Source: Acidobacteriota bacterium
GTDB lineage: Bacteria > Acidobacteriota > Vicinamibacteria > Vicinamibacterales > CAVVIG01
Direction: 5' to 3'
Assembly: GCA_043759095.1 (NCBI GenBank)
Contig: JAYVMG010000627.1
Span: 1 to 35,090 of the forward strand
Length of the DNA: 35,090 nt
The notes beneath the pieces are model-generated. The model did no database searches, was not told where the DNA came from, and saw only the letters and a program-made list of their open reading frames with translations. Positions 21,789 to 31,838 of this stretch are shown here, piece after piece; the stretch's first letter is position 1, and every line of letters begins with the position of its first letter. The position numbers and the translations under genes are program-made.

Positions 21789-21812
21789 CGACCGCCGCTG
21801 CGCCTCGGCGCG

Positions 21813-22970
21813 TCAATGCGCGCCGGCTGCCCCCGCACTGGTCGCCAGTGTCTCGGCGCGCGCGGATGTGAGCAGCGGTTCGATGTTCGGGCCCGGCTCA
21901 TACGCGCACAATGGATCCGAAGCCATCACCGCGCCGGTCGCGGCGAACGCCCTCGACCGGGATCCGCCGCAGATGTCCCGGAACCGGCAGCGGCCGCACT
22001 TGCCCATGAGCGCGTCCGTGTCGCGGAGGCGCGTGAAGACGTCATCGGTGCGGTACACCTCCGCCAGGCTCGTCGTTCGCACGTTGCCGCACTGCACGGG
22101 CAGGAAGCCGCTCGGGCAGATGTTGCCGAGATGGTCGACGAACACGAAGCCGTTACCGTCGTTCACGCTGCGTGGCGCGCGAAGCTGGCGGCGGCTCGCC
22201 ACCGCCTGCGACGGAAGGCCGTCACGCACCCGCTCATGCTCGCGCTGCCACACCACGCGCTGGTAGTGCGGCGCCTCCGTCGTCTTGATGCCGAATGGCG
22301 ACGTGAGCGAGAGGTCATAGAGGCGGTTCAGCAGCTTCTCGCACTCGACGTCGTTGATCTGCTCGAGGCCGGCGCCGCGGCCGGTCTGGATCAGGAAGAA
22401 CAGGGCCCAGAGCGTCAGCGGGAACTCGGCGACGCGAGCGGCCATCGCGTCGAAGTCCGCGAGCGTCCGCCGGCTGATCGTCGAGTTGATCTGCAAGGGC
22501 AGCCCCAGGTCGATGGTGGCCTCGATGATCCGCATCGTCCAGTGGTACGAACCGCGCACCCCACGGAATGCATCATGTGATTCGGGCGTCGGGCCGTCGA
22601 GGCTGACCGCGATGCGCGAGAGCCCGGCCTCCTTCAGCGCGGCGAGCTTGGCCGGCGTGGCCGCGGCCGTACCACTCGGCGTGAGCGCGACGGTCAGGCC
22701 GGCGCCGGCGGCGTATCGCACGAGTTCCACGAGATCGGGCCGCCGCATCGGGTCGCCGCCCGTCAGTACAAAGAGCGGCGGCTTCTCGCCGAATCCACGC
22801 ACCTGATCGATCAGTCGGAACGCCTCTTCCGTGGTGAGCTCGCGCGGATCGCGGCGGTGTATCGCGTCCGCGCGGCAGTGCACGCAGGCGAGCGCGCAGG
22901 CGCGCGTCACTTCCCAGATCACGAGAAATGGCGCGCGGTTGAAGTCCGGGGCGAAAGCGGCAGGCGTCAT
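21813..22970 (-). CDS. Radical SAM/SPASM protein, TIGR04053-like (NirJ/AhbD-related)
   Basis: VIWEVTRACALACVHCRA (CxxxCxxC), LTGGDP, KTTEAPHY, VNDGNGFVFV, CPSGFLP, GKCGRCRFRDICGGSRSRA, DPLC; start ATG 22970. Confidence 0.9.
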   Translation of the reverse strand: MTPAAFAPDFNRAPFLVIWEVTRACALACVHCRADAIHRRDPRELTTEEAFRLIDQVRGFGEKPPLFVLTGGDPMRRPDLVELVRYAAGAGLTVALTPSGTAAATPAKLAALKEAGLSRIAVSLDGPTPESHDAFRGVRGSYHWTMRIIEATIDLGLPLQINSTISRRTLADFDAMAARVAEFPLTLWALFFLIQTGRGAGLEQINDVECEKLLNRLYDLSLTSPFGIKTTEAPHYQRVVWQREHERVRDGLPSQAVASRRQLRAPRSVNDGNGFVFVDHLGNICPSGFLPVQCGNVRTTSLAEVYRTDDVFTRLRDTDALMGKCGRCRFRDICGGSRSRAFAATGAVMASDPLCAYEPGPNIEPLLTSARAETLATSAGAAGAH

Positions 22971-23003
22971 GCCTCCAGCATCGCGCGGGGCCCGGCAACT
23001 GCC

Positions 23004-23019
23004 TATGACCCGCGTCATA
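23004..23019. promoter_or_regulatory. Crp/Fnr-type palindromic site 1 (radical SAM promoter)
   Basis: TATGAC-CCGC-GTCATA; centre 23011.5 is 41.5 nt upstream of ATG 22970; -10-like GATGCT at 22982-22977. Confidence 0.8.
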
Positions 23020-23048
23020 CGCCAGAGAAGACAAGAAAAGACACGGCG

Positions 23049-23064
23049 TATGACGGCCGTCATA
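23049..23064. promoter_or_regulatory. Crp/Fnr-type palindromic site 2 (nos operon promoter)
   Basis: TATGAC-GGCC-GTCATA; centre 23056.5; -10 TACAGT 23086-23091 predicts +1 at 23098, i.e. -41.5. Confidence 0.82.
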
Positions 23065-23130
23065 GGGCCGCATGTCTGCGGGTTCTACAGTGGCCTCATG
23101 ACGATTGACGTCGCTTGCTGGAGGGCGCTG

Positions 23131-24297
23131 ATGACACGCCACACGATTCGACGCGGACTCGCAATCCTCTCGCTGCTGACCGCCGGCGTCTTCCTGGCCG
23201 GCTGTTCGTCCAGTCGGCCCGCCGCCGATGCGGCGTCGCTCACGCCACCATTTCTCGACACGCCCGTTGCGCCGCGACCGGCGATGACGTCGGCGACGGT
23301 CGAGAAGGGCAAGCAGCTGTACGACGCCAACTGTGTCCAGTGCCATGGGCCGGAAGGCAAGGGCGATGGCTACGGCGCGCCGTTTCTCGTCCCGCCGCCG
23401 CGCGATTTCACCGGCGGCCAGTTCAAGTTCAGGACGACGGCGGGAGGCCTGCTGCCGACCGACGACGACCTGTTCCGCACGATTTCGCGCGGCGCGAACG
23501 GCACGGGCATGCCGCCGTGGAAGTACCTGCTCAACGATGAGGAGCGCTGGGCGCTTGTCGAATACGTGAAGAGTTTCGAGCCTCGCTTTGCCAATGCGCG
23601 AACCCTCAAGGCCATGCCGCTGCCGGATGCCCCCGGCAGGTCGCGGGACGCCGTCCACGGCAAAGCCGTGTATCTGAAAATGCAGTGCGAGAAGTGCCAC
23701 GGCGAAGATGGCCGCGGCGTCGGGCCCTCGTCGAATGCGATGGTCGACGCCAAGGGTCGGCACGTGAACGGTCGCGACTTCACCCAGCCCGGGTCGTACC
23801 GCACCGGCTGGACCGAACGCGAGATCATCCGCACGCTCGAAACAGGGATGAACGGCGTACCGATGCCGTCGTACACGGGCATCATGTCGAAGCAGGAAGA
23901 GTACGACCTTGTGGCCTACCTGATGAGTATCGCGGGTCCGGGCTCCGGCAATCAGAAGCGTCAGCTCGCCAAGAGCATGGAAGGCGTCGGCGCACCTGAT
24001 CGGGTCATCACGCTGCGCGAGCACGCGTGGAAATACGAGCCGGCGGAGATTCACGTGAAGCGCGGAGAAGTGGTGAAGATCGAATTTTCGACGACCGACA
24101 ACGGTCTGGGTGCTGGGCACGGCTTCGCACTCGACGGGCTCGATCAGAGCGTGTTCATCAACGGCGCCATGGTCGGCGCGCCGCTCTCGGTCACGTTCAA
24201 GGTCGACACCCCCGGGCGCTACAACTTCTACTGCGCGACGCAATGCAGCACGACCGAACTGCACCCCAAGATGCACGGCGTGCTGATCGTCGACTAA
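23131..24297 (+). CDS. Lipoprotein: two c-type cytochrome domains plus C-terminal CuA-like cupredoxin domain
   Basis: Lipobox LAGC; CVQCH...GMP, CEKCH...PMP; GHGF...YCATQCSTTELHPKMHG; GGAGG RBS before ATG 23131 (in-frame alternative ATG 23098). Confidence 0.9.
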   Translation: MTRHTIRRGLAILSLLTAGVFLAGCSSSRPAADAASLTPPFLDTPVAPRPAMTSATVEKGKQLYDANCVQCHGPEGKGDGYGAPFLVPPPRDFTGGQFKFRTTAGGLLPTDDDLFRTISRGANGTGMPPWKYLLNDEERWALVEYVKSFEPRFANARTLKAMPLPDAPGRSRDAVHGKAVYLKMQCEKCHGEDGRGVGPSSNAMVDAKGRHVNGRDFTQPGSYRTGWTEREIIRTLETGMNGVPMPSYTGIMSKQEEYDLVAYLMSIAGPGSGNQKRQLAKSMEGVGAPDRVITLREHAWKYEPAEIHVKRGEVVKIEFSTTDNGLGAGHGFALDGLDQSVFINGAMVGAPLSVTFKVDTPGRYNFYCATQCSTTELHPKMHGVLIVD

Positions 24298-24318
24298 CTA
24301 CGGACCTGTGGAGCTGAC

Positions 24319-26148
24319 ATGAAACGCCATTCGTTCCTTCTCGTCGCCGCGACCATCGTCGCCACGCTTGCTGCCGTGCACTCCATGGGCTGCGGCGCCT
24401 CGCGCTCGGCCCGATCGCTGGCCGCTGAAAAGGTGTATGTCGCACCCGGTGAGCTCGACAAGTACTACGCCTTCCTCTCGGGCGGCCAAAGCGGATCGGT
24501 GTTCGTGGTCGGGATTCCGTCGGGTCGTCTGATCCGTGAAATCCCGGTGTTCGAACCCCGGGCAGCGTATGGCTACGCGATGAACGACAACGATCCCCGC
24601 CGGCAGGAACTCGTCGCGACCGGCGGCGTATGGGGCGACACCCACCATCCCGTCCTGTCGGAAACCAACGGCATGCCCGATGGGAAGTACCTCTGGATCA
24701 ACGATCTCGCCAACGGTCGGTTGGCGCGCATCCGGCTCGACTATTTCGAAGCCGACCGCATCCTCAAGCTGCCGAATATGCAGGGGGCGCACGGCATCGC
24801 CGTGGTCTCGCCGAACACGAAGTACATCGTCGTCAACGGTGAGTTCGAGCTGCCGACCGACGGTCTCGTGACGAATCCGGCGCCCTACACGTCGGTCGTC
24901 TCGTTCGTCGATCCCGACAGCATGCAGGTGAAGTTCCAGGTCCGCATCAACGGCAACATCGATATTGCCGACACGTCGAAGGATGGCCGCTACTCGTTCT
25001 CGACGGTCTACAACCTCGAGCAAGGCAAGGACATGGGATCGATGATTCAGTACGACCGTGATGCGGTCGCGGCCATCGACATTCCGGCGGCCGAGAAGGC
25101 CATCGCGGCCGGACGCGGCGAGGTGCGCAACGGCGCGCCGATTCTCGACCCTGAGACAAATCCCGGTGTGCTGACGCTGATTCCGGTTCCCAAGAATCCT
25201 CACGGGATCAACGTGACGCCTGATGGCCGCTATGCCATCGCCGCCGGGAAGTTGTCGCCGACGGTCACGATCATCGACGCGCACACGCTGAAGATCATCG
25301 CCGAACCCGAGGTCGGCCTGGGGCCGCTGCACACCACGTTCGACGATCGCGGCAACGCGTTCACATCGCTGTTTCTCGACAGCCAGGTCGTGAAGTGGAA
25401 CATCGACAAGGCGGTGAAAGGCGCACCCGACTACATCGTGGACCGCATCAACGTGCACTACAACATCGGTCATCTGCAGGCGGTCGGCGGCGACCACATG
25501 CATCCGGCGGGCGACTACCTCATCGCGCTCAACAAGCTGTCGAAGGACATGTATGCGCCGGTTGGTCCCGATCTACCGGAAAACCAGGAGATCATCGACA
25601 TCTCCGGCGAGAAGATGAAGCTGCTCGCGTCGTTCCCGACGCCGCCCGAGCCGCACGACGCGACGTTCATGGCCGTGTCAGTGCTGAAGCCGCTCGTCCA
25701 CCAGACGTACACGCCGGCCGACAATGCGGTTCAAGCCGGCAAGGAGCGGGTCGTGCGCACCGCGCCGCACGCCGTGACGGTGGACATGACGCTGATTCGC
25801 AGCGCCTATACGCCGGACAAGGTCGAGGTGCGGGAAGGCGATCAGGTGACGCTGAAGATCACCAACGTGGAGACGATTCGCGACATGATTCACGGCTTTG
25901 CGCTGCCGGACCACAACTTGAACATTGCGCTCGCGCCCGGGTATACCAAGACCATCACGTTCGATGCCGGCAAGCCGGGCGTCTATTGGTACTACTGCAC
26001 GAATTTCTGCAGCGCGCTCCACCTCGAGATGCGCGGGCGGATGCTCGTGCAACCGAAAGATTCGACCGTCACGCTGACCGACTGGCACGCGGCGGCGAAC
26101 GTCCAAGGGCAGGTCGTTGCCGGCGTGCCATCGACCGGGGCCAAGTAA
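24319..26148 (+). CDS. nosZ: Nitrous oxide reductase
   Basis: All seven CuZ His contexts (DTHH, GAHG, PKNPHG, GLGPLH, NIGH, EPHD) and CuA ligands (HGF, CTNFCSALHLEM). Confidence 0.97.
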   Translation: MKRHSFLLVAATIVATLAAVHSMGCGASRSARSLAAEKVYVAPGELDKYYAFLSGGQSGSVFVVGIPSGRLIREIPVFEPRAAYGYAMNDNDPRRQELVATGGVWGDTHHPVLSETNGMPDGKYLWINDLANGRLARIRLDYFEADRILKLPNMQGAHGIAVVSPNTKYIVVNGEFELPTDGLVTNPAPYTSVVSFVDPDSMQVKFQVRINGNIDIADTSKDGRYSFSTVYNLEQGKDMGSMIQYDRDAVAAIDIPAAEKAIAAGRGEVRNGAPILDPETNPGVLTLIPVPKNPHGINVTPDGRYAIAAGKLSPTVTIIDAHTLKIIAEPEVGLGPLHTTFDDRGNAFTSLFLDSQVVKWNIDKAVKGAPDYIVDRINVHYNIGHLQAVGGDHMHPAGDYLIALNKLSKDMYAPVGPDLPENQEIIDISGEKMKLLASFPTPPEPHDATFMAVSVLKPLVHQTYTPADNAVQAGKERVVRTAPHAVTVDMTLIRSAYTPDKVEVREGDQVTLKITNVETIRDMIHGFALPDHNLNIALAPGYTKTITFDAGKPGVYWYYCTNFCSALHLEMRGRMLVQPKDSTVTLTDWHAAANVQGQVVAGVPSTGAK

Positions 26149-26723
26149 TGAAGGTGCGGCTCCTCTACGCCGCCGCCGCCGCGCTCGTCGCGGCGACGCT
26201 AGCGTTCCCGCTGTGGGGCTTCGCCATGGCTGCGCCGCAATACCCTGACGAGACCCTGCACCTGCAGGTGACGCGGGCCGGGATTGTCGGCGACGTGCAG
26301 GAGGTGTCGACCCTGCAGCATTTCATCGGCGTGCGGTTCCCGACTGAGTTGCCGGAGTTGAGGTGGGCGACGGCCGCGATCGTCGCGCTTGCAGCCCTCC
26401 TGCTGCTCGGCGCGCTTGTCGGCGGTGGCGCGGTCGGCCGCGTGTATCGCGTGCTGTGCGCCGTTGCGCTGGTGACATTTCTCGTGGCATCAGCCGCCGT
26501 GGTGCAGACGCGGTTGTACCAGGTCGGCCACGATCGCGATCCGGACGCGCCACTGCGCGGCATGCGCAATTTTACCCCGCCGCTTGTCGGCCCGGCGAAG
26601 GTCGGCAATTTTACTGTGTGGTCATTTCCGCATACCGGCGCCCTCATGCTGCTGTTGGCGGCAGGCCTCGCCGTCTATGGAGTCCGCCTTCAGCCGGACT
26701 CTTCGGGAAAGGCGGCCGCGTGA
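26148..26723 (+). CDS. nosB: NosB-like membrane protein
   Basis: PLW...APQYP, GDV.....LQHFIG, GH.RDP.AP, PPLVG.....NFT..S.P match the clade II NosB pattern; ATG overlaps nosZ TAA. Confidence 0.85.
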   Translation: MKVRLLYAAAAALVAATLAFPLWGFAMAAPQYPDETLHLQVTRAGIVGDVQEVSTLQHFIGVRFPTELPELRWATAAIVALAALLLLGALVGGGAVGRVYRVLCAVALVTFLVASAAVVQTRLYQVGHDRDPDAPLRGMRNFTPPLVGPAKVGNFTVWSFPHTGALMLLLAAGLAVYGVRLQPDSSGKAAA

Positions 26724-28123
26724 GGCGTCGAACCGCGCTCATCGCCGTCGTCCTCGCTCTTGCCGCTGCGCGCGCGGACGCGCGGACCTGGCTCGTCGGC
26801 GGCGCTGGCGCGGACTTTCCGCTGATCGCGCCAGCGATAGCGGCTGCGTCAGCGGGAGACGTCGTCCGCGTGCGTGGCGGCGTCTATCGTGAAGACCTGG
26901 TTCTCGACAAGTCCATCACCCTCACAGGCGAAGGGCATCCGACGCTGTTTGGCACTGGCCTCGGGTCGGTCATCACCATCACGGCGCCGGGATGTGAAGT
27001 GAGGGGGTTCACGATCGAAGGCAGCGGCATCGGCGAGACCAACGAGATGGACGCCGCCGTGCAGGTCCGGTCCAACGGCAATCGCATCGTGGACAACACG
27101 ATGCGTCGAGTGTTTTACGGCGTCGTGCTCGCCGATGCCATGCGGAACGAGATCGCCGACAACGACATTCAGGGCTTGCGTGACCTTGCCTTCGGTCGGC
27201 GCGGCGACGGCATTTATCTGTACCGCGCGCCGGAGAACTTCGTCGCGCGCAACCGCATCTTCGGCGAGCGCGACGGCATCTATTTCCAATATGCCCCGCG
27301 TGGCCGGGCGGTCGACAACGTGGTTTCGGATTCACGTTACGGGCTGCACGACATGTTTTCCGACGACGCGGTGATCGCCAGGAATACGTTCAGCGACTCT
27401 GTCGTCGGAGCCAACATCATGAACTCGCGGAGGGTGCGCCTCGAAGGAAACACGATCTCCCGCAATCGCGGCGTGCCGGGCATCGGTCTGACGCTGAAGG
27501 ATTGCGACGACTCGACGATTCGGCACAACGTGATCGTCGGCAACGCGCGGGGGCTCCTCCTCGACGGATCGTCCGTGAACCGGTTCAGCGACAACACGTT
27601 CCGCGCCAACGACACCGCGGTCACGCTCTTCTCCAGCGCCGAACAGAACGTGTTCAGCGGCAACCGGTTTGTCGACAACTGGAGCGATCTCGTGCTGAGC
27701 GGCCGCGACTCCGGCACACGCTGGACTGCAGACGGGCGCGGCAACTACTGGAGCCGGTATCGCGGCTTCGACTTCGATGGCGATGGGATCGGCGACACGC
27801 CGCATCCGCTCGTCGGCGCGTTCGAGCGTCTCGAAGGAGCAAATCCGGCAGCACGCATCTTTCTGCAAAGCCCCGCGGCGGCCGGTCTGGAACTCGCCGC
27901 ACGACTGAGTGGACGCACGGCGGACGACGCGACTGACGATCGCCCGATGGTGCGCCAGCCGCAACCCGCCCTTCCGGCGTCGTCGCGGCCGACCGCGGGA
28001 ATCGCCGGCGTCGCAGCGCTGCTCATCGTCGGGTGCGCGCTGCGCGTTTCGAGGCGTCAGCGGAGGAAGATCGCCGTCAGCGGCCATCCTGATTCCAGAG
28101 GAATCGATCCATGCTCACACTGA
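26720..28123 (+). CDS. nosD: Periplasmic NosD maturation protein
   Basis: Parallel beta-helix repeats, RGDGIYL, RDGIY, RYGLHDM, GNYWSRYRGFDFDGDGIGD; GTG 26720 overlaps nosB TGA. Confidence 0.93.
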   Translation: MRRRTALIAVVLALAAARADARTWLVGGAGADFPLIAPAIAAASAGDVVRVRGGVYREDLVLDKSITLTGEGHPTLFGTGLGSVITITAPGCEVRGFTIEGSGIGETNEMDAAVQVRSNGNRIVDNTMRRVFYGVVLADAMRNEIADNDIQGLRDLAFGRRGDGIYLYRAPENFVARNRIFGERDGIYFQYAPRGRAVDNVVSDSRYGLHDMFSDDAVIARNTFSDSVVGANIMNSRRVRLEGNTISRNRGVPGIGLTLKDCDDSTIRHNVIVGNARGLLLDGSSVNRFSDNTFRANDTAVTLFSSAEQNVFSGNRFVDNWSDLVLSGRDSGTRWTADGRGNYWSRYRGFDFDGDGIGDTPHPLVGAFERLEGANPAARIFLQSPAAAGLELAARLSGRTADDATDDRPMVRQPQPALPASSRPTAGIAGVAALLIVGCALRVSRRQRRKIAVSGHPDSRGIDPCSH

Positions 28124-28911
28124 CCGGCGTCACGAAGGCCTTCGGCAATCGCCGCGTGCTCGATCACCTCGACCTCGAGATCGGCGCGGGCGAGAGCATC
28201 GCCATGCTCGGCGCGAACGGGTCCGGCAAGACAACGGCGCTGCGCTGCAGCGTCGGGCTGGCGAGGCCGGACGAGGGCCGCATCACCGTTGGCGGCGTCG
28301 ACATGGCGCGCGATCCCATTGGCGCGCGAGGCCGCCTCAGTTACCTGCCGCAGAAGTCGGTCTTTCCGGCGACGCTGACCGTGCGCGAGACGCTGGCGGT
28401 AGTGGCGCGGCTGCGCGGGATTCCGGCCGTCGCCGTCGATCGCGAGCTCGACGCGTGCGGCCTCGTTGCGCTGGCGGACCGCGGCGTCGGCCACCTGTCC
28501 GGCGGAGAGCGGCAACGCCTCGCGATGGCCGTGGCGTTTCTGCCGACGGTCGACGTGTACCTGTTCGACGAACCGTCGGCCAATCTCGATCCCGTGGCGT
28601 CGCGCATGTTATTCCAGCGCGCCAGGCAGCTGAAGCGCGACGGCCACACGCTGCTGTTCACGACGCACATTCCGGCCGACGTGCGTCATCTGGCGACGCG
28701 GATCGTGTTGCTTCGCGACGGACGGATTGAATCCGAAGCGGCCGGACAGTTCGAGCTCCGCCGCTACGAGCGGATGCTGGAGCGCGACATGTGGGGGGAC
28801 GAACATGAAGACGTGGCGCTTGATCCTCGCGTTGCTGCTGGCGTCGGTGTCGGCGGCAGCCTGTGCGAAACGGAGTATGTCGGCCGAGCCGTTGCCGCTC
28901 GATCGCGTTGA
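28111..28911 (+). CDS. nosF: ABC transporter ATPase NosF
   Basis: GANGSGKT, LSGGE, LFDEP, TTH; position after nosD. Confidence 0.9.
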   Translation: MLTLTGVTKAFGNRRVLDHLDLEIGAGESIAMLGANGSGKTTALRCSVGLARPDEGRITVGGVDMARDPIGARGRLSYLPQKSVFPATLTVRETLAVVARLRGIPAVAVDRELDACGLVALADRGVGHLSGGERQRLAMAVAFLPTVDVYLFDEPSANLDPVASRMLFQRARQLKRDGHTLLFTTHIPADVRHLATRIVLLRDGRIESEAAGQFELRRYERMLERDMWGDEHEDVALDPRVAAGVGVGGSLCETEYVGRAVAARSR

Positions 28912-29242
28912 ATGCGCACGGTGCCGGATGCTGATATCAACGGACCGCGGAGGCGGGGAGATCGTGTCGGCGACAGACGACACGCGCTTCTACGACGACA
29001 TCGGCTGTCTCGCGGCCGATTGGGCGGCACATCACGGTGACGCTCGAGCGTTCGTGCGAACCGCGGGCGGGGGATGGACCGACGCGCAGGTCGCGTCGTT
29101 TGCGCAGCCGACCGACGCCAGGACGGCGATGGGCTCCGGTATCGCGGCGTTCGCCGCGGCGGCCGATGCACGCGCCGCCGATCCCACGGGCCGAGTGCTG
29201 ACCTTCGACGATGTCGTGCACCTCTCGGGAGGGCAGCGATGA
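28805..29242 (+). CDS. nosL: NosL copper chaperone lipoprotein
   Basis: MKTWRLILALLLASVSAAAC lipoprotein signal, CARCRM, YDDIGC, TAMGSG. Confidence 0.88.
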   Translation: MKTWRLILALLLASVSAAACAKRSMSAEPLPLDRVECARCRMLISTDRGGGEIVSATDDTRFYDDIGCLAADWAAHHGDARAFVRTAGGGWTDAQVASFAQPTDARTAMGSGIAAFAAAADARAADPTGRVLTFDDVVHLSGGQR

Positions 29243-30066
29243 TGACTCATCTTCTGACGATCGCTCAACTGGAGCTGACAGCGGCCGTCCGGTTGAAGTG
29301 GATCCAGCTGCTGACCGCTGCCTTCGCGTTGCTGGCGGCCGCTGCGGCGTACTCTGCCGGCGTCGCCAATGAGGTCACGGGCGCGGAGGGCTTTGCGCGC
29401 ACTACGATGGCGCTTATTCCGGTCGTGCTCATTCTGGCGCCGCTGTCGGCGCTGATTCTGGGAGTGTCGGGTCAGGCCTCGGAACCGGGCAGCGAGCCGT
29501 TCCTGTTCGGTCAGCCAGTTGGTCGCTCGACTGTTCTGGTTGGTCGTTGGCTCGGCGAATCCGTCGCGCTCGGCGCCTCCATCGTCACCGGCCTGGGGAT
29601 CGGGGGCGTCATCATCGCGTCTGGCAGCGGCGCCGATGGCCTGCTGCGATTCATCTTCTTTGTGCTCTCGTCGGTTGTACTTGCCACGATCTTCCTGTCG
29701 ATCGCCGCCGCGATCGCGTCGGCCACCGACACGCGCGTCGTGGCGCTCGGGGTCGCCACGTTCGCATGGTTCTTCTTTGTGTTGCTCTATGACGGCGCCG
29801 CGCTCTCTCTCGCGGGATGGCTCACGGGATCGCTCGGCGGCCGGATCCTCTTCGGGTCAGTCTTTGGAAATCCGACGGACTTGATTCGTGTGGTTGCACT
29901 ATCGGTGGCGGGCGCCCCCAATGTTCTCGGGGCTGCCGGCGACGCGTGGGTACGCTTCTTAGGCGGGGCGACGGGCGCAGCCGTCGCGGCGATGGTCGCG
30001 CTCACGGTGTGGATGATTGCGCCGCTCCTCCTCGGCGTACGGCTGATCAGCACGCGCGATCTGTAG
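29239..30066 (+). CDS. nosY: ABC transporter permease NosY
   Basis: Multiple TM segments, QPVGR..VLVGRWLG, WFFFVLLYD, NPTDLIR; ATGA overlap with nosL. Confidence 0.88.
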   Translation: MMTHLLTIAQLELTAAVRLKWIQLLTAAFALLAAAAAYSAGVANEVTGAEGFARTTMALIPVVLILAPLSALILGVSGQASEPGSEPFLFGQPVGRSTVLVGRWLGESVALGASIVTGLGIGGVIIASGSGADGLLRFIFFVLSSVVLATIFLSIAAAIASATDTRVVALGVATFAWFFFVLLYDGAALSLAGWLTGSLGGRILFGSVFGNPTDLIRVVALSVAGAPNVLGAAGDAWVRFLGGATGAAVAAMVALTVWMIAPLLLGVRLISTRDL

Positions 30067-30074
30067 GGCGGCCC

Positions 30075-30764
30075 TCAGGACACGGCGACCGTCTCCAGAG
30101 CAGCGCGATCGACGATCACAAACCCATCCTTGTCGGTTCGGACCACGCCATCTTTGCCCCACCGGCTCATGATGCGTATCGACGTCTCAATCGTTGTGCC
30201 GATCATGTCGGCGAGTTCCTGTCGCGACAGCACGAGGGGAATGAAGACGCCCTCATCACGGCGTTGCCCGATGTCTGTGCCCAGCTTCAGAAAGAAGCGT
30301 GCGAGTCGCCCTTCAATGCGGCCGCCCGACAATTCGGTCAGGCGGTTGGTCAGTTCCACCAGACGATGCGTCAGCCCCACCAAGAGACCGCGAACCATGG
30401 TGGGATAGCCCTCGAGCAGCGAGAAGAATGCCTGGCGCGGGATGAGCAGGCAGGAGGTCGGTTCCAGCGCGAGCGCACTGGCTGGATAAGGACGGGCTTC
30501 GTATACGGCCACGGCGCCCACCGGATCTCCCGGACCGAAGAGTTCGAGGATCACATCCGTGCCGCGCGGTGTCGTCTTGAACACTTTCACTCGGCCGGTC
30601 AGGACCGTGTACATCAGGTCTGATCCGTCGCCCTCACTGAACAACGTGGCGCCTTTCTCGAAGGCGCGCACCGTCGCGACGGCCGCCAGGCGTTGCCGGT
30701 CGTCGGGCTTGAGACGGCGGAACAGGACACTCCGGCGCAGGGCGTCGTCGACTAGTTCGGACAT
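30075..30764 (-). CDS. Crp/Fnr family regulator (DNR/NnrR/HcpR-like, no Fe-S Cys cluster)
   Basis: cNMP-type barrel (LFSEGD, GRVKV, YPASA), RLARF, HTH LSRQELADMIGTTIETSIRIMS; only one Cys. Confidence 0.93.
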   Translation of the reverse strand: MSELVDDALRRSVLFRRLKPDDRQRLAAVATVRAFEKGATLFSEGDGSDLMYTVLTGRVKVFKTTPRGTDVILELFGPGDPVGAVAVYEARPYPASALALEPTSCLLIPRQAFFSLLEGYPTMVRGLLVGLTHRLVELTNRLTELSGGRIEGRLARFFLKLGTDIGQRRDEGVFIPLVLSRQELADMIGTTIETSIRIMSRWGKDGVVRTDKDGFVIVDRAALETVAVS

Positions 30765-30779
30765 ATGACGCGGATCATA
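30764..30779. promoter_or_regulatory. Crp/Fnr-type site 3 (ric promoter; overlaps the regulator's own promoter and start)
   Basis: TATGAC-GCGG-ATCATA; centre 30771.5; -10 TACTCT 30801-30806 predicts +1 at 30813, i.e. -41.5. Confidence 0.8.
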
Positions 30780-30826
30780 CCGTCACGTTTGCGGCGCCGC
30801 TACTCTGGATAGGAAACGGAGCTGTC

Positions 30827-31561
30827 ATGAATGAACCATTGACAACGAGAACGGTCGGCGAAGTCGTGTCCGCCGACTTCCGCACCGTCGCGGTGTTCGA
30901 ACAATTTGGCATCGACTTCTGCGGTAGCGGTCGCCGTTCGCTTGAAGATGCCTGTCGTGCGGCCGCGGCCAATCCGGACACCGTGGTCCGCGCCCTTGAT
31001 GCGCTGCCGCCAGCGATCGAAACCAACGACGACGTGACGCGATGGCCGGTTCCGCAGCTGATCGACTTCATTGTGTCGACACATCACGCGTACGTGCGAT
31101 CGGCGATGCCAACGATCGCGAGGCGCCTCGCAAAACTGAACGAGGTGTATAGCTCGCGGCATCCGGAACTCTCGCGTGTGGCCGCGTACTTCGACCAGGT
31201 GCGCCGCGATCTCGAGCAGCACATGCTGAAGGAGGAGCAGGTGCTCTTTCCGTACGTGCGCGATCTCGCCGAATGCGGCGAGAGCTGCGGCTGGACGCGG
31301 AGCCCGTTCGGTACAGTGGAAAATCCGATCCGGATGATGGAGCGAGAGCATCAGGAAGTCGGCGATGCGATGCGTCTGATTGGCGAATTGACCCTTGGCT
31401 ACGCGCCGCCCGAGGACGGCTGCACGACGTATTTGATCGGCATGGCCGAACTCCAGCGTTTCGAGCGCGACCTGCGCCGGCACGTGCATCTGGAGAACAA
31501 TGTGCTGTTTCCCGCTGCCGTGCGGATTGAACAGCGGCTGTGCGGAATCGCCGGAGCCTGA
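30827..31561 (+). CDS. ric: Iron-sulfur cluster repair di-iron protein Ric (YtfE/ScdA/DnrN)
   Basis: ScdA-N-like GIDFC.., hemerythrin ligands THHAY, HMLKEE, REH, HVHLENNVLFP; GGAG RBS. Confidence 0.93.
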   Translation: MNEPLTTRTVGEVVSADFRTVAVFEQFGIDFCGSGRRSLEDACRAAAANPDTVVRALDALPPAIETNDDVTRWPVPQLIDFIVSTHHAYVRSAMPTIARRLAKLNEVYSSRHPELSRVAAYFDQVRRDLEQHMLKEEQVLFPYVRDLAECGESCGWTRSPFGTVENPIRMMEREHQEVGDAMRLIGELTLGYAPPEDGCTTYLIGMAELQRFERDLRRHVHLENNVLFPAAVRIEQRLCGIAGA

Positions 31562-31838
31562 TTGCGACAGACACGCCCGAAGAATTCTCCGGCTATTCGA
31601 AGACACTCAAGGGTTTGCCGACCCGACAGGATCGCTCGAACGCGTCGCCCAGAGGCGCCGCATAGCCTACTCGGCGTGCATGGGCAAGCCTCTCGGGCAT
31701 CATCGGATCCATCGAATTGGACGCATTCCCGATTCAATAATTGATGACAATTGCGACAATCTTCCTGTTTTTCGTAGCCCCATAATGTGACGAAATCGCG
31801 TTCTTGTGGAGCTTGGTGTCCGTCAGGGAGGTATCGGC

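Follow-up and report, generated by a model that had tools for sequence, protein, structure and literature searches.

Introduction

The genes dnrN (= ric), nor and nos belong to the core of the regulons responsive to nitric oxide (NO) and nitrite, and several Crp/Fnr-type boxes have been listed in this connection, namely TGTGA-N6-TCACA for CRP, TTGATnnnnATCAA for FNR and DNR, TTAACnnnnGTTAA for NssR, GTAACnnnnGTTAC for HcpR2 and wyTTGACnnnnGTCAArw for HcpR1, the last in non-Desulfovibrio delta-proteobacteria and two cyanobacteria (consulted part of Rodionov 2005, PMC1274295). HcpR1 has been predicted in Geobacter, Desulfuromonas, Desulfotalea, Anabaena variabilis and Synechocystis (slr0449) (PMC1274295). 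For clade II nos genes, control by NssR-type regulators has been suggested, with TTGA-N6-TCAA boxes located about 48 nt from the transcription start (consulted part of PMC11539149). The present analysis deals with a DNA stretch of 35,090 nt (contig JAYVMG010000627.1; hereafter the window is this whole stretch) from a metagenome-assembled genome (MAG) of Vicinamibacterales (Acidobacteriota), in which three copies of a 16-bp palindrome accompany a radical SAM gene, a nos operon, ric and the gene of a Crp/Fnr-family regulator. In our opinion, these palindromes are, with a probability of roughly 0.8, the operator of the adjacent regulator, which would activate the radical SAM gene, nos and ric from class II positions.

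Probable Operator Sites in the Window and the Source Genome

The three sites are as follows.

23004..23019: operator site 1, TATGACCCGCGTCATA, predicted to serve the leftward radical SAM promoter; GATGCT 21 nt to its left
23049..23064: operator site 2, TATGACGGCCGTCATA, predicted to serve the rightward cytochrome c/nos promoter; TACAGT 21 nt to its right
30764..30779: operator site 3, TATGACGCGGATCATA, between the regulator gene and ric, a predicted ric activator site and probable autoregulatory site; TACTCT 21 nt to its right

An earlier note on this DNA had proposed three copies of TATGAC-N4-RTCATA, and the 16-mers do begin at 23004, 23049 and 30764. The pattern TATGACNNNNRTCATA has these three matches in the window and no others; over 100 dinucleotide-preserving shuffles the average number of matches was 0.00, and no shuffle had as many. 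A genome-wide motif scan, also called for in that note, found the same three matches only in the source genome (G000; 4,498,111 bases, 65% G+C, 667 contigs, 92.7% complete, the window being its contig C627), and the reversed-pattern control gave 0. The three sites scored 31.9, 27.6 and 23.7 in a weight-matrix scan of G000, in which everything else reached at most 15.1 and the next-best candidates carried two mismatches. The weaker candidates (2 mismatches or a weight score of 15.1 or below) were dropped, as they are not separable from chance.

The radical SAM and cytochrome c genes diverge from a gap of 127 nt, which holds sites 1 and 2; the regulator gene and ric, likewise divergent, have site 3 between them. 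Two sites paired at a distance of 44-45 bp were found again in G012, G020 and G005, and the layout of site 1 with its -10-like hexamer in G012, G005, G017, G033, G015 and G023.

Half-site statistics were obtained from 120 reads, the sites having been preselected at no more than one mismatch; T3, G4, A5 and T12, C13, A14 were invariant in them (120/120). The half-site is ATGAC, with A at its position 1 in 119-120 of the 120 reads, C at position 5 in 115 and a further conserved T outside. The flanks and the N4 spacer are near-uninformative (0.03-0.35 bits), and conservation is confined to 12 specified bases. The box of the present regulator can be written as tATGACnnnnGTCATa.

Co-occurrence with the Regulator

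For comparison, 61 genomes from 43 genera of this family were used, and the regulator protein and the perfect palindrome TATGACNNNNGTCATA were searched in them separately. An ortholog of the regulator (59-95% identity) was found in 20 genomes (G000 counted) belonging to 16 genera, and the palindrome was present in exactly those 20, with 53 sites in all and from 1 to 8 per genome. It was absent from all the 41 ortholog-free genomes, including three that have 32-35% paralogs alone, and the reversed-pattern control gave one site across the 61 genomes. Judging from this pattern, it is highly likely that the box is bound by this regulator.

The second sample consisted of 80 loci at regulator homologs from named MAGs, with 280 kb in total. 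A site with at most one mismatch was found no farther than about 1.5 kb from the gene at 53 of the 80 loci (69 sites; reversed control 0). Homologs with 38-41% identity, from MAGs labelled as Binatia, Deltaproteobacteria and others, retain GTT[IV]E[TS]xIR as their recognition helix, with TATGAT-N4-GTCATA directly upstream of the gene, the general form of the box being TATGA[CT]-N4-[GA]TCATA. Four regulators (L153, L154, L157 and L158) have Gln in place of Ile or Val in the recognition helix (GTTQET or GITQET). Near two of them, L153 and L158, (C/T)ATGAT-N4-ATCAT(G/A) is located and not ATGAC-N4-GTCAT, and the other two are without a site in the fetched stretch; the protein and the box may co-vary in this small sample.

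Probable Regulon in Related Genomes

The DNA around every perfect site was fetched, and genes were predicted there with a codon-usage caller trained on G000, the best-scoring start being chosen. All starts outside the window come from this caller of our own. For annotation, 40 of the 80 flanking genes were searched against NCBIfam, all 80 were clustered by BLAST and the representatives of the remaining clusters were searched against Pfam; classes were further assigned by blastx against 15 reference proteins. When one mismatch was allowed, 65 sites were obtained, of which 64 are intergenic, and the exception (L069) is a mis-called open reading frame (ORF) spanning the gap between the regulator gene and ric, the one locus that the caller got wrong.

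The most constant target is ric, which has a site upstream in 18 of the 20 genomes (16 by the blastx classes, G011 and G049 by NCBIfam); the two genomes without a counted site are G012, with a degenerate site, and G023, with very short contigs. Other sites lie upstream of the regulator gene itself (14/20), of the TIGR04053 radical SAM gene (10/20, plus a RIC-radical SAM fusion in G024) and of the cytochrome c gene heading nos (8/20), with nosZ directly downstream in G000, G012, G033, G017 and G005. Four genomes of the 20 have a site upstream of a membrane protein of 430-460 amino acids whose similarity to subunit I of heme-copper oxidases stays below the threshold (HCO-like), and four have one upstream of multicopper oxidases, one of them NirK-like. 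Rarer targets are a GltD-like Fe-S flavoprotein oxidoreductase and a HAD hydrolase (two genomes each), a qNor with a cytochrome c-like domain and a hemerythrin (one genome each) and several unknowns. As the earlier note had named conservation at orthologous loci as a check, it should be said that the motif does recur at orthologous ric, radical SAM and nos loci across genera. These targets are of the kind that defines a regulon of the DNR/NnrR type (nir, nor, nos, dnrN/ric), and their content matches the NO/nitrite-responsive regulons as described in the consulted part of PMC1274295.

Two of the target groups deserve separate mention. The fusion in G024 (L060:3220-4941) is a 573-aa ORF with an operator upstream, in which residues 28-187 correspond to RIC/hemerythrin (TIGR03652) and residues 218-569 to the TIGR04053 radical SAM/SPASM protein. 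The fusion and the co-regulation in 10 genomes link the uncharacterised TIGR04053 radical SAM family to the function of RIC. The HCO-like proteins are encoded at L080:10411-11751, L066:1329-2627, L059:3736-5130 and in G047 (L069), and score 34.6 bits with PF00115 against a cut-off of 34.8; they may be divergent NO-reductase-like proteins.

Promoter Geometry

Each site of the window is accompanied by a -10-like hexamer.

22977..22982, minus strand: -10-like GATGCT of the radical SAM promoter, followed by 6 nt and ATG (A at 22970)
23086..23091, plus strand: -10-like TACAGT of the nos promoter, followed by 6 nt and the in-frame ATG at 23098
30801..30806, plus strand: -10-like TACTCT of the ric promoter, with a predicted +1 near 30813 and a 14-nt leader with GGAG

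These hexamers had been named in the earlier note and are indeed present, each exactly 21 nt past the end of its site. Its arithmetic can be reproduced as well: with +1 at 7 nt past the hexamer, the predicted starts are 22970, 23098 and 30813, and all the site centres are then at -41.5. This is the position of class II activation, as in Escherichia coli FNR.

The geometry was tested in every direction in which a gene starts no more than 400 nt ahead of a site (96 in all), the hexamer being defined as nAnnnT. Its offset from the site was 21 nt in 42 of the directions and 22 nt in 16 (58/96 in total), with a background of about 3 at every other offset and an expected fraction of 0.03. Such a spacing puts the site centre at -41.5 or -42.5, and all three sites of the window have 21 nt. 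The hexamers found at this distance are TACGCT, TACTCT, TACAGT, GATGCT, CATGCT, GACACT and similar; TAC(T/G)CT occurs at equal spacing in ric promoters of at least 12 orthologs. The conservation of this spacing in other genera supports the view that the hexamers are real promoter elements. When the hexamer occupies -12 to -7, the site covers -49 to -34. No -35-like hexamer was found 16-18 nt upstream of the -10 elements of the window, where the bases belong to the site end and to G+C-rich sequence. The class II activation arrangement is thus supported for the predicted transcription starts, and activation by the regulator rather than repression is quite likely.

An additional element is located between the paired sites.

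23030..23042: A-rich 13-mer GACAAGAAAAGAC, midway between sites 1 and 2, kept in place in G012, G005 and G017 (three genera)

It stands out in a genome with 65% G+C and is not kept in G020. Its role may be that of an UP-like or bending element, or a second factor may bind there.

Probable Leaderless Transcripts

For the radical SAM gene, the predicted +1 (22970) coincides with the A of its ATG, which implies a leaderless mRNA. The same order of hexamer, 5-6 nt and start codon was found for this gene in seven genomes (G000, G012, G005, G017, G033, G015 and G023), while in two more genomes the gene is preceded by a leader that contains a Shine-Dalgarno sequence. The cytochrome c gene is also laid out as TACAGT, 6 nt and ATG (23098 in the window), likewise in G012 and G005, and the nos transcript is probably leaderless, with a start that is ambiguous because a second in-frame ATG, preceded by GGAGGG, is located at 23131.

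In G000 as a whole, 1588 first-in-unit genes with an upstream gap of at least 70 nt were counted. The pattern TAnnnT piles up at -15 to -12 from their start codons (37, 40, 46 and 69 genes against about 10 elsewhere), and a Shine-Dalgarno-like word at -20 to -4 is present in just 353 of the 1588. A TAnnnT peak immediately before start codons is a known signature of frequent leaderless mRNAs, and such mRNAs seem to be common in this Vicinamibacterales genome. Taken together, leaderless starts at these promoters appear fairly likely.

Site 3 and the Probable Promoter of the Regulator Gene

On the strand of the regulator gene, site 3 reads TATGATCCGCGTCATA, and its final A (30764) is the A of the regulator ATG; the N-terminus of the protein aligns with those of the orthologs. 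One half of the site is a feature in its own right.

30774..30779, minus strand: half-site TATGAT, candidate -10 of the regulator's own leaderless promoter, starting at -15 from ATG

This distal half matches the -10 consensus in 5 of 6 positions, and -15 falls within the leaderless range found genome-wide. The 41 sites located at most 140 nt upstream of regulator genes include 22 symmetric ones, 14 with C-to-T in the distal half only, 5 with the change in both halves and 0 with the change in the proximal half only; one would not expect a neutral change to be so one-sided. Where the palindrome is perfect, a separate GAGAAT or TACGAT is located 5 nt after the site, with ATG 8-9 nt on. A bound dimer would cover the promoter of the regulator gene in both designs, which suggests negative autoregulation; the chances of autorepression through site 3 may be put at about even. 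The earlier note had described site 3 as a ric activator site. The geometry of the ric promoter agrees with this, but the site does not belong to ric solely, as it overlaps the start codon of the regulator gene and its probable -10 element.

The Regulator Protein

The regulator, P0001, matches the Pfam families PF00027 (E 1.9e-22), PF13545 (1.6e-17) and PF00325 (1.2e-6), all above the cut-offs. It has a cyclic nucleotide (cNMP)-binding-like N-terminal domain and a Crp-type helix-turn-helix, and its predicted operator is a palindrome of the TGA-N6-TCA format, as is characteristic of the Crp/Fnr superfamily. No NCBIfam equivalog model gave a score above its cut-off (FtrB 59 against 211 bits, Fnr 56.6 against 228, CRP 53.8 against 266). 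A sequence search of the PDB gave CRP of Mycobacterium tuberculosis (E 1.1e-22), Thermus Crp (2.5e-19), DNR (3dkw, 1.6e-18), Aliivibrio FNR (about 1e-14) and also NtcA. Assignment to DNR, NnrR or HcpR1 was considered and dropped, since the distances to CRP-type, DNR and FNR chains are approximately equal and no equivalog is above its cut-off.

The cluster of FNR is held by three N-terminal cysteines and a central one. P0001 has a single Cys (C105, present in 55 of 74 homologs) and so cannot hold an FNR-type cluster. In the phosphate-binding cassette, the two residues by which M. tuberculosis CRP contacts cAMP, Glu and Arg, are matched by A84 and Y93 of P0001, and these contacts are thus lacking. 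In the recognition helix GTTIETSIR, Ile aligns with R180 of CRP, Glu with E181 and Arg with R185; positions 180, 181 and 185 of CRP contact DNA, and the first two co-vary with bases 3 and 6 of the box (Rodionov 2005, PMC1274295).

Close relatives of the regulator come from MAGs labelled as Acidobacteria/Acidobacteriota and Vicinamibacterales. Five records (L106, L117, L119, L122 and L128) titled "uncultured Bifidobacteriaceae" or "Bifidobacterium" have regulators 62-73% identical to P0001 and the same box; these taxon labels look wrong. Proteins marked by the helix GTT[IV]E[TS]xIRxxS[RK]W and the ATGAC-N4-GTCAT box were found in Vicinamibacteria, in Acidobacteriota labelled as Holophagales, Thermoanaerobaculia and Polarisedimenticolia, in Binatia and in some other MAGs. 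A tentative and rather doubtful extension of these data is that the regulator founds an undescribed, phylum-spanning Crp/Fnr subfamily, which, being devoid of FNR cysteines, cNMP contacts and a conserved His or Cys, maybe senses NO or another signal in a manner unlike DNR, CooA and FNR and makes nitrous oxide (N2O) reduction conditional on nitrosative stress through leaderless class II promoters, with a half-site that doubles as its own -10 element.

Genes of the Window

The genes were identified by Pfam and NCBIfam profile searches.

21813..22970, minus strand: radical SAM/SPASM protein, TIGR04053 (AhbD/NirJ-like), 460 bits with a cut-off of 395
23098..24297, plus strand: leading gene of the nos operon, encoding a lipoprotein that combines a cupredoxin domain with two c-type cytochrome domains; start possibly at 23131, with GGAGGG before it
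24319..26148, plus strand: NosZ, nitrous-oxide reductase, by profile matches; signal peptide without a twin-arginine motif
26148..26723, plus strand: membrane protein without a family assignment, encoded between nosZ and nosD
26720..28123, plus strand: NosD (Pfam/NCBIfam)
28111..28911, plus strand: NosF-like ABC ATPase (Pfam)
29074..30066, plus strand: NosY-like ABC-2 permease (Pfam); start may be 29239
30075..30764, minus strand: Crp/Fnr-family regulator P0001, 229 aa, recognition helix GTTIETSIRIMSRW
30827..31561, plus strand: ric/ytfE, iron-sulfur cluster repair di-iron protein, TIGR03652 213 bits (above the cut-off), Pfam ScdA_N and Hemerythrin

For the radical SAM protein, the next-best NCBIfam model is heme b synthase AhbD, with a score under its cut-off. 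The signal of NosZ is of a lipoprotein/Sec type (MKRHSFLLVAATIVATLAAVHSMGC), and the protein, with 584 bits in the TAT-type and 535 bits in the Sec-type NCBIfam model, stays under the cut-off in either case (625). The neighbours of nosZ are a di-heme cytochrome c/cupredoxin fusion before it and a membrane protein of no known family after it.

Proposed Mechanism and Alternative Explanations

According to the proposed mechanism, a dimer of the regulator would bind TATGAC-N4-GTCATA with its centre at -41.5, take the place of the missing -35 element and recruit RNA polymerase. At the first promoter, this would produce a leaderless mRNA of the radical SAM/SPASM gene beginning with the A of ATG at 22970; at the second, the transcript of an operon comprising the cytochrome c/cupredoxin gene, nosZ, the membrane protein gene and nosDFY; at the third, that of ric. 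The same dimer at site 3 would repress the leaderless gene of the regulator itself while activating ric. The suggestion of the earlier note that the local regulator acts on the radical SAM gene, nos and ric through the box has gained support from co-occurrence, recurring targets and the 21-22 nt spacing, three lines of comparison between genomes. The composition of the regulon (RIC and N2O reductase here; qNor, multicopper oxidases and hemerythrin in relatives) points to NO or nitrosative stress as the signal, as in the cases of DNR, NnrR, HcpR and NssR, and NO is somewhat favoured in this role.

Some observations weigh against the reading as a whole or in part. The split of 20 against 41 genomes overstates independence because the genomes are kin, and distances to start codons carry an error because a home-made gene caller sets the starts. 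Among the 15 sequencing runs listed for positions 21800-31600, none is on record as RNA. No hexamer at 20-22 nt was found in 36 of the 96 directions, mostly on the far side of paired sites or on the side of the regulator gene. In G012 (L094, position 1486; the same position in L095), the site between ric and the regulator gene is degenerate (TATGATCCGCATCACA) despite a 95%-identical regulator in the same genus; the paired radical SAM/nos sites of this genome are perfect. The two other points concern the sensor domain and the gene content of G000 and bear on the nature of the signal.

Thus, the regulator and the box may be as proposed, with a signal other than NO, such as low oxygen, redox state, N2O or a metabolite, and this is a possible, if not a likely, alternative. 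In the sensor domain, neither a His nor a Cys is conserved among the 74 homologs (H133 in 29, C105 in 55), so DNR- or CooA-like heme ligation is not evident. A search of G000 (92.7% complete) for denitrification genes found no qNor cytochrome c-like domain and no NirK above the cut-off, although nos is present, and the organism may therefore not make NO itself; it may reduce N2O without denitrifying and encounter NO of external origin. Going by the title of PMC5582078, the main activator of the nos genes in Bradyrhizobium diazoefficiens is FixK2, responding to low oxygen. On the other hand, an FNR-type oxygen-labile cluster is excluded by the single Cys, qNor, hemerythrin and the RIC-radical SAM fusion are also among the targets, and RIC is the most constant of them; under the name dnrN, it is a core member of NO/nitrite-responsive regulons (PMC1274295).

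It is improbable that the regulator binds the box but represses all the promoters over their -35 regions until a signal arrives, in the way NsrR controls proteobacterial ric. A site at -49 to -34 is able to block RNA polymerase, there is a clear overlap of site 3 with the start of the regulator gene, and TACTCT of ric and TACAGT of nos are fair -10 elements. However, the fixed spacing in 58 of the 96 directions is the geometry of class II activation, a -35-like hexamer is lacking 16-18 nt upstream of the -10 elements, and the -10 of the radical SAM gene is weak (GATGCT, CATGCT, GACACT), as is expected of activator-dependent promoters. The family also provides precedents for activation, namely DNR, NnrR, NssR and the predicted positive control of hcp by HcpR (PMC1274295).

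Still less probable is binding of the palindrome by another transcription factor, with its adjacency to the Crp/Fnr gene being coincidental. Genes such as ric could have the same phyletic pattern, but co-occurrence with the regulator ortholog is exact (20/20 against 0/41), the site accompanies the regulator gene in 14 of the 20 genomes and also in distant phyla, and the regulators with the Gln helix (L153 and L158) go with (C/T)ATGAT-N4-ATCAT(G/A). A 6-4-6 palindrome with a TGA-N6-TCA core is, moreover, the format of a Crp/Fnr dimer (PMC1274295).

Chance matches or copies of a repeat or mobile element without a regulatory role, for which only the small copy number speaks, have a negligible probability, since none is expected from shuffles, the sites of 20 genomes fall between genes and point to gene starts, and the flanks are not conserved, which rejects a repeat or mobile element. 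With high probability, the sites are real and functional.

Significance

By record titles and labels, Vicinamibacterales and related Acidobacteriota appear in metagenomes of soil, sediment and groundwater, and many of them carry a Sec-type NosZ; a switch of N2O reductase in such organisms bears on N2O emissions. Very probably, it is a familiar type of switch with a slightly different DNA box, acting in an abundant, uncultured group without described regulation. If the subfamily proposed above were real, N2O reduction in abundant non-denitrifying soil N2O reducers would depend on nitrosative stress.

The data provide a concrete testable regulon with one regulator and one 16-bp box, whose targets are ric, nos, the TIGR04053 radical SAM gene, qNor and multicopper oxidases, and the box can be used now for annotating this regulon in metagenomes. 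The uncharacterised TIGR04053 radical SAM family is tied to the nitrosative-stress response by its co-regulation with RIC in 10 genomes and the fusion in one. The locus would also illustrate, within a short stretch, how class II activation works at leaderless promoters, with an unusual self-overlapping promoter design.

Comparison with Known Systems

A full-text literature search, with the supplementary site lists S1-S3 of Rodionov 2005 lying outside it, gave no ATGAC-N4-GTCAT, TATGAC-N4-GTCATA or ATGACNNNNGTCAT. The string TGACNNNNGTCA was met in the literature solely in Rodionov 2005, as a part of TTGACnnnnGTCAA. No paper on such a DNR-like regulator was found in the literature on nosZ regulation in Vicinamibacterales and Acidobacteria.

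E. coli FNR is similar to the present regulator in family, in the TGA-N6-TCA core and in the binding of a dimer to a palindrome, which is predicted here. They differ in that FNR has a cysteine cluster and the half-site TTGAT, whereas a single Cys and the half-site ATGAC are found here. DNR of Pseudomonas aeruginosa and P. stutzeri, like the present regulator, has no FNR cysteine cluster, and its class II-type geometry is like that predicted for the present system. Its heme-ligand histidines, as reported, are without a conserved counterpart in the present homologs. Further, the DNR box TTGATnnnnATCAA differs from one built of ATGAC half-sites, and the similarity between the proteins is modest (3dkw, E 1.6e-18), being weaker than that to M. 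tuberculosis CRP (1.1e-22). NnrR of alpha-proteobacteria and NssR of Campylobacter jejuni, with homologs in Wolinella and Nitrosophilus, are activators of the Crp/Fnr family through which nir, nor, nos or globin genes are coupled to NO or nitrosative stress. In contrast to the present system, they use other boxes in other phyla, and neither a radical SAM target nor a leaderless layout is described for them in the consulted parts of PMC1274295 and PMC11539149.

HcpR1 has a number of features in common with the regulator considered here. Both are Crp/Fnr proteins without the FNR cysteine motif, have an identical TGAC-N4-GTCA core in their boxes and are often encoded beside a divergent target; the HcpR1 regulon is also one of nitrosative stress and redox genes, with norB and genes resembling those of hemerythrin and cytochrome c among its members (consulted part of PMC1274295). 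The differences from HcpR1, as it is presented there, concern three points. The outer base of the box is T in HcpR1 and A here, with a conserved flanking T in addition; the residue at CRP position 180 is Ser or Pro in HcpR1 and Ile or Val here; and the core targets are hcp and frdX in HcpR1 and ric, the TIGR04053 radical SAM gene and nos here. No hybrid cluster protein occurs among the annotated site-flanking genes, the genomes themselves not having been searched for hcp.

Summarizing this comparison, it may be said that the words "non-canonical" and "altered specificity" used in the earlier note are overstated, as the TGA-N6-TCA core is kept and the HcpR1 core is shared; the difference lies in the outer A in place of T and in the flanking T. 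With the core of HcpR1 and a changed outer base, the box is a variant within the FNR-type boxes and not a new format.

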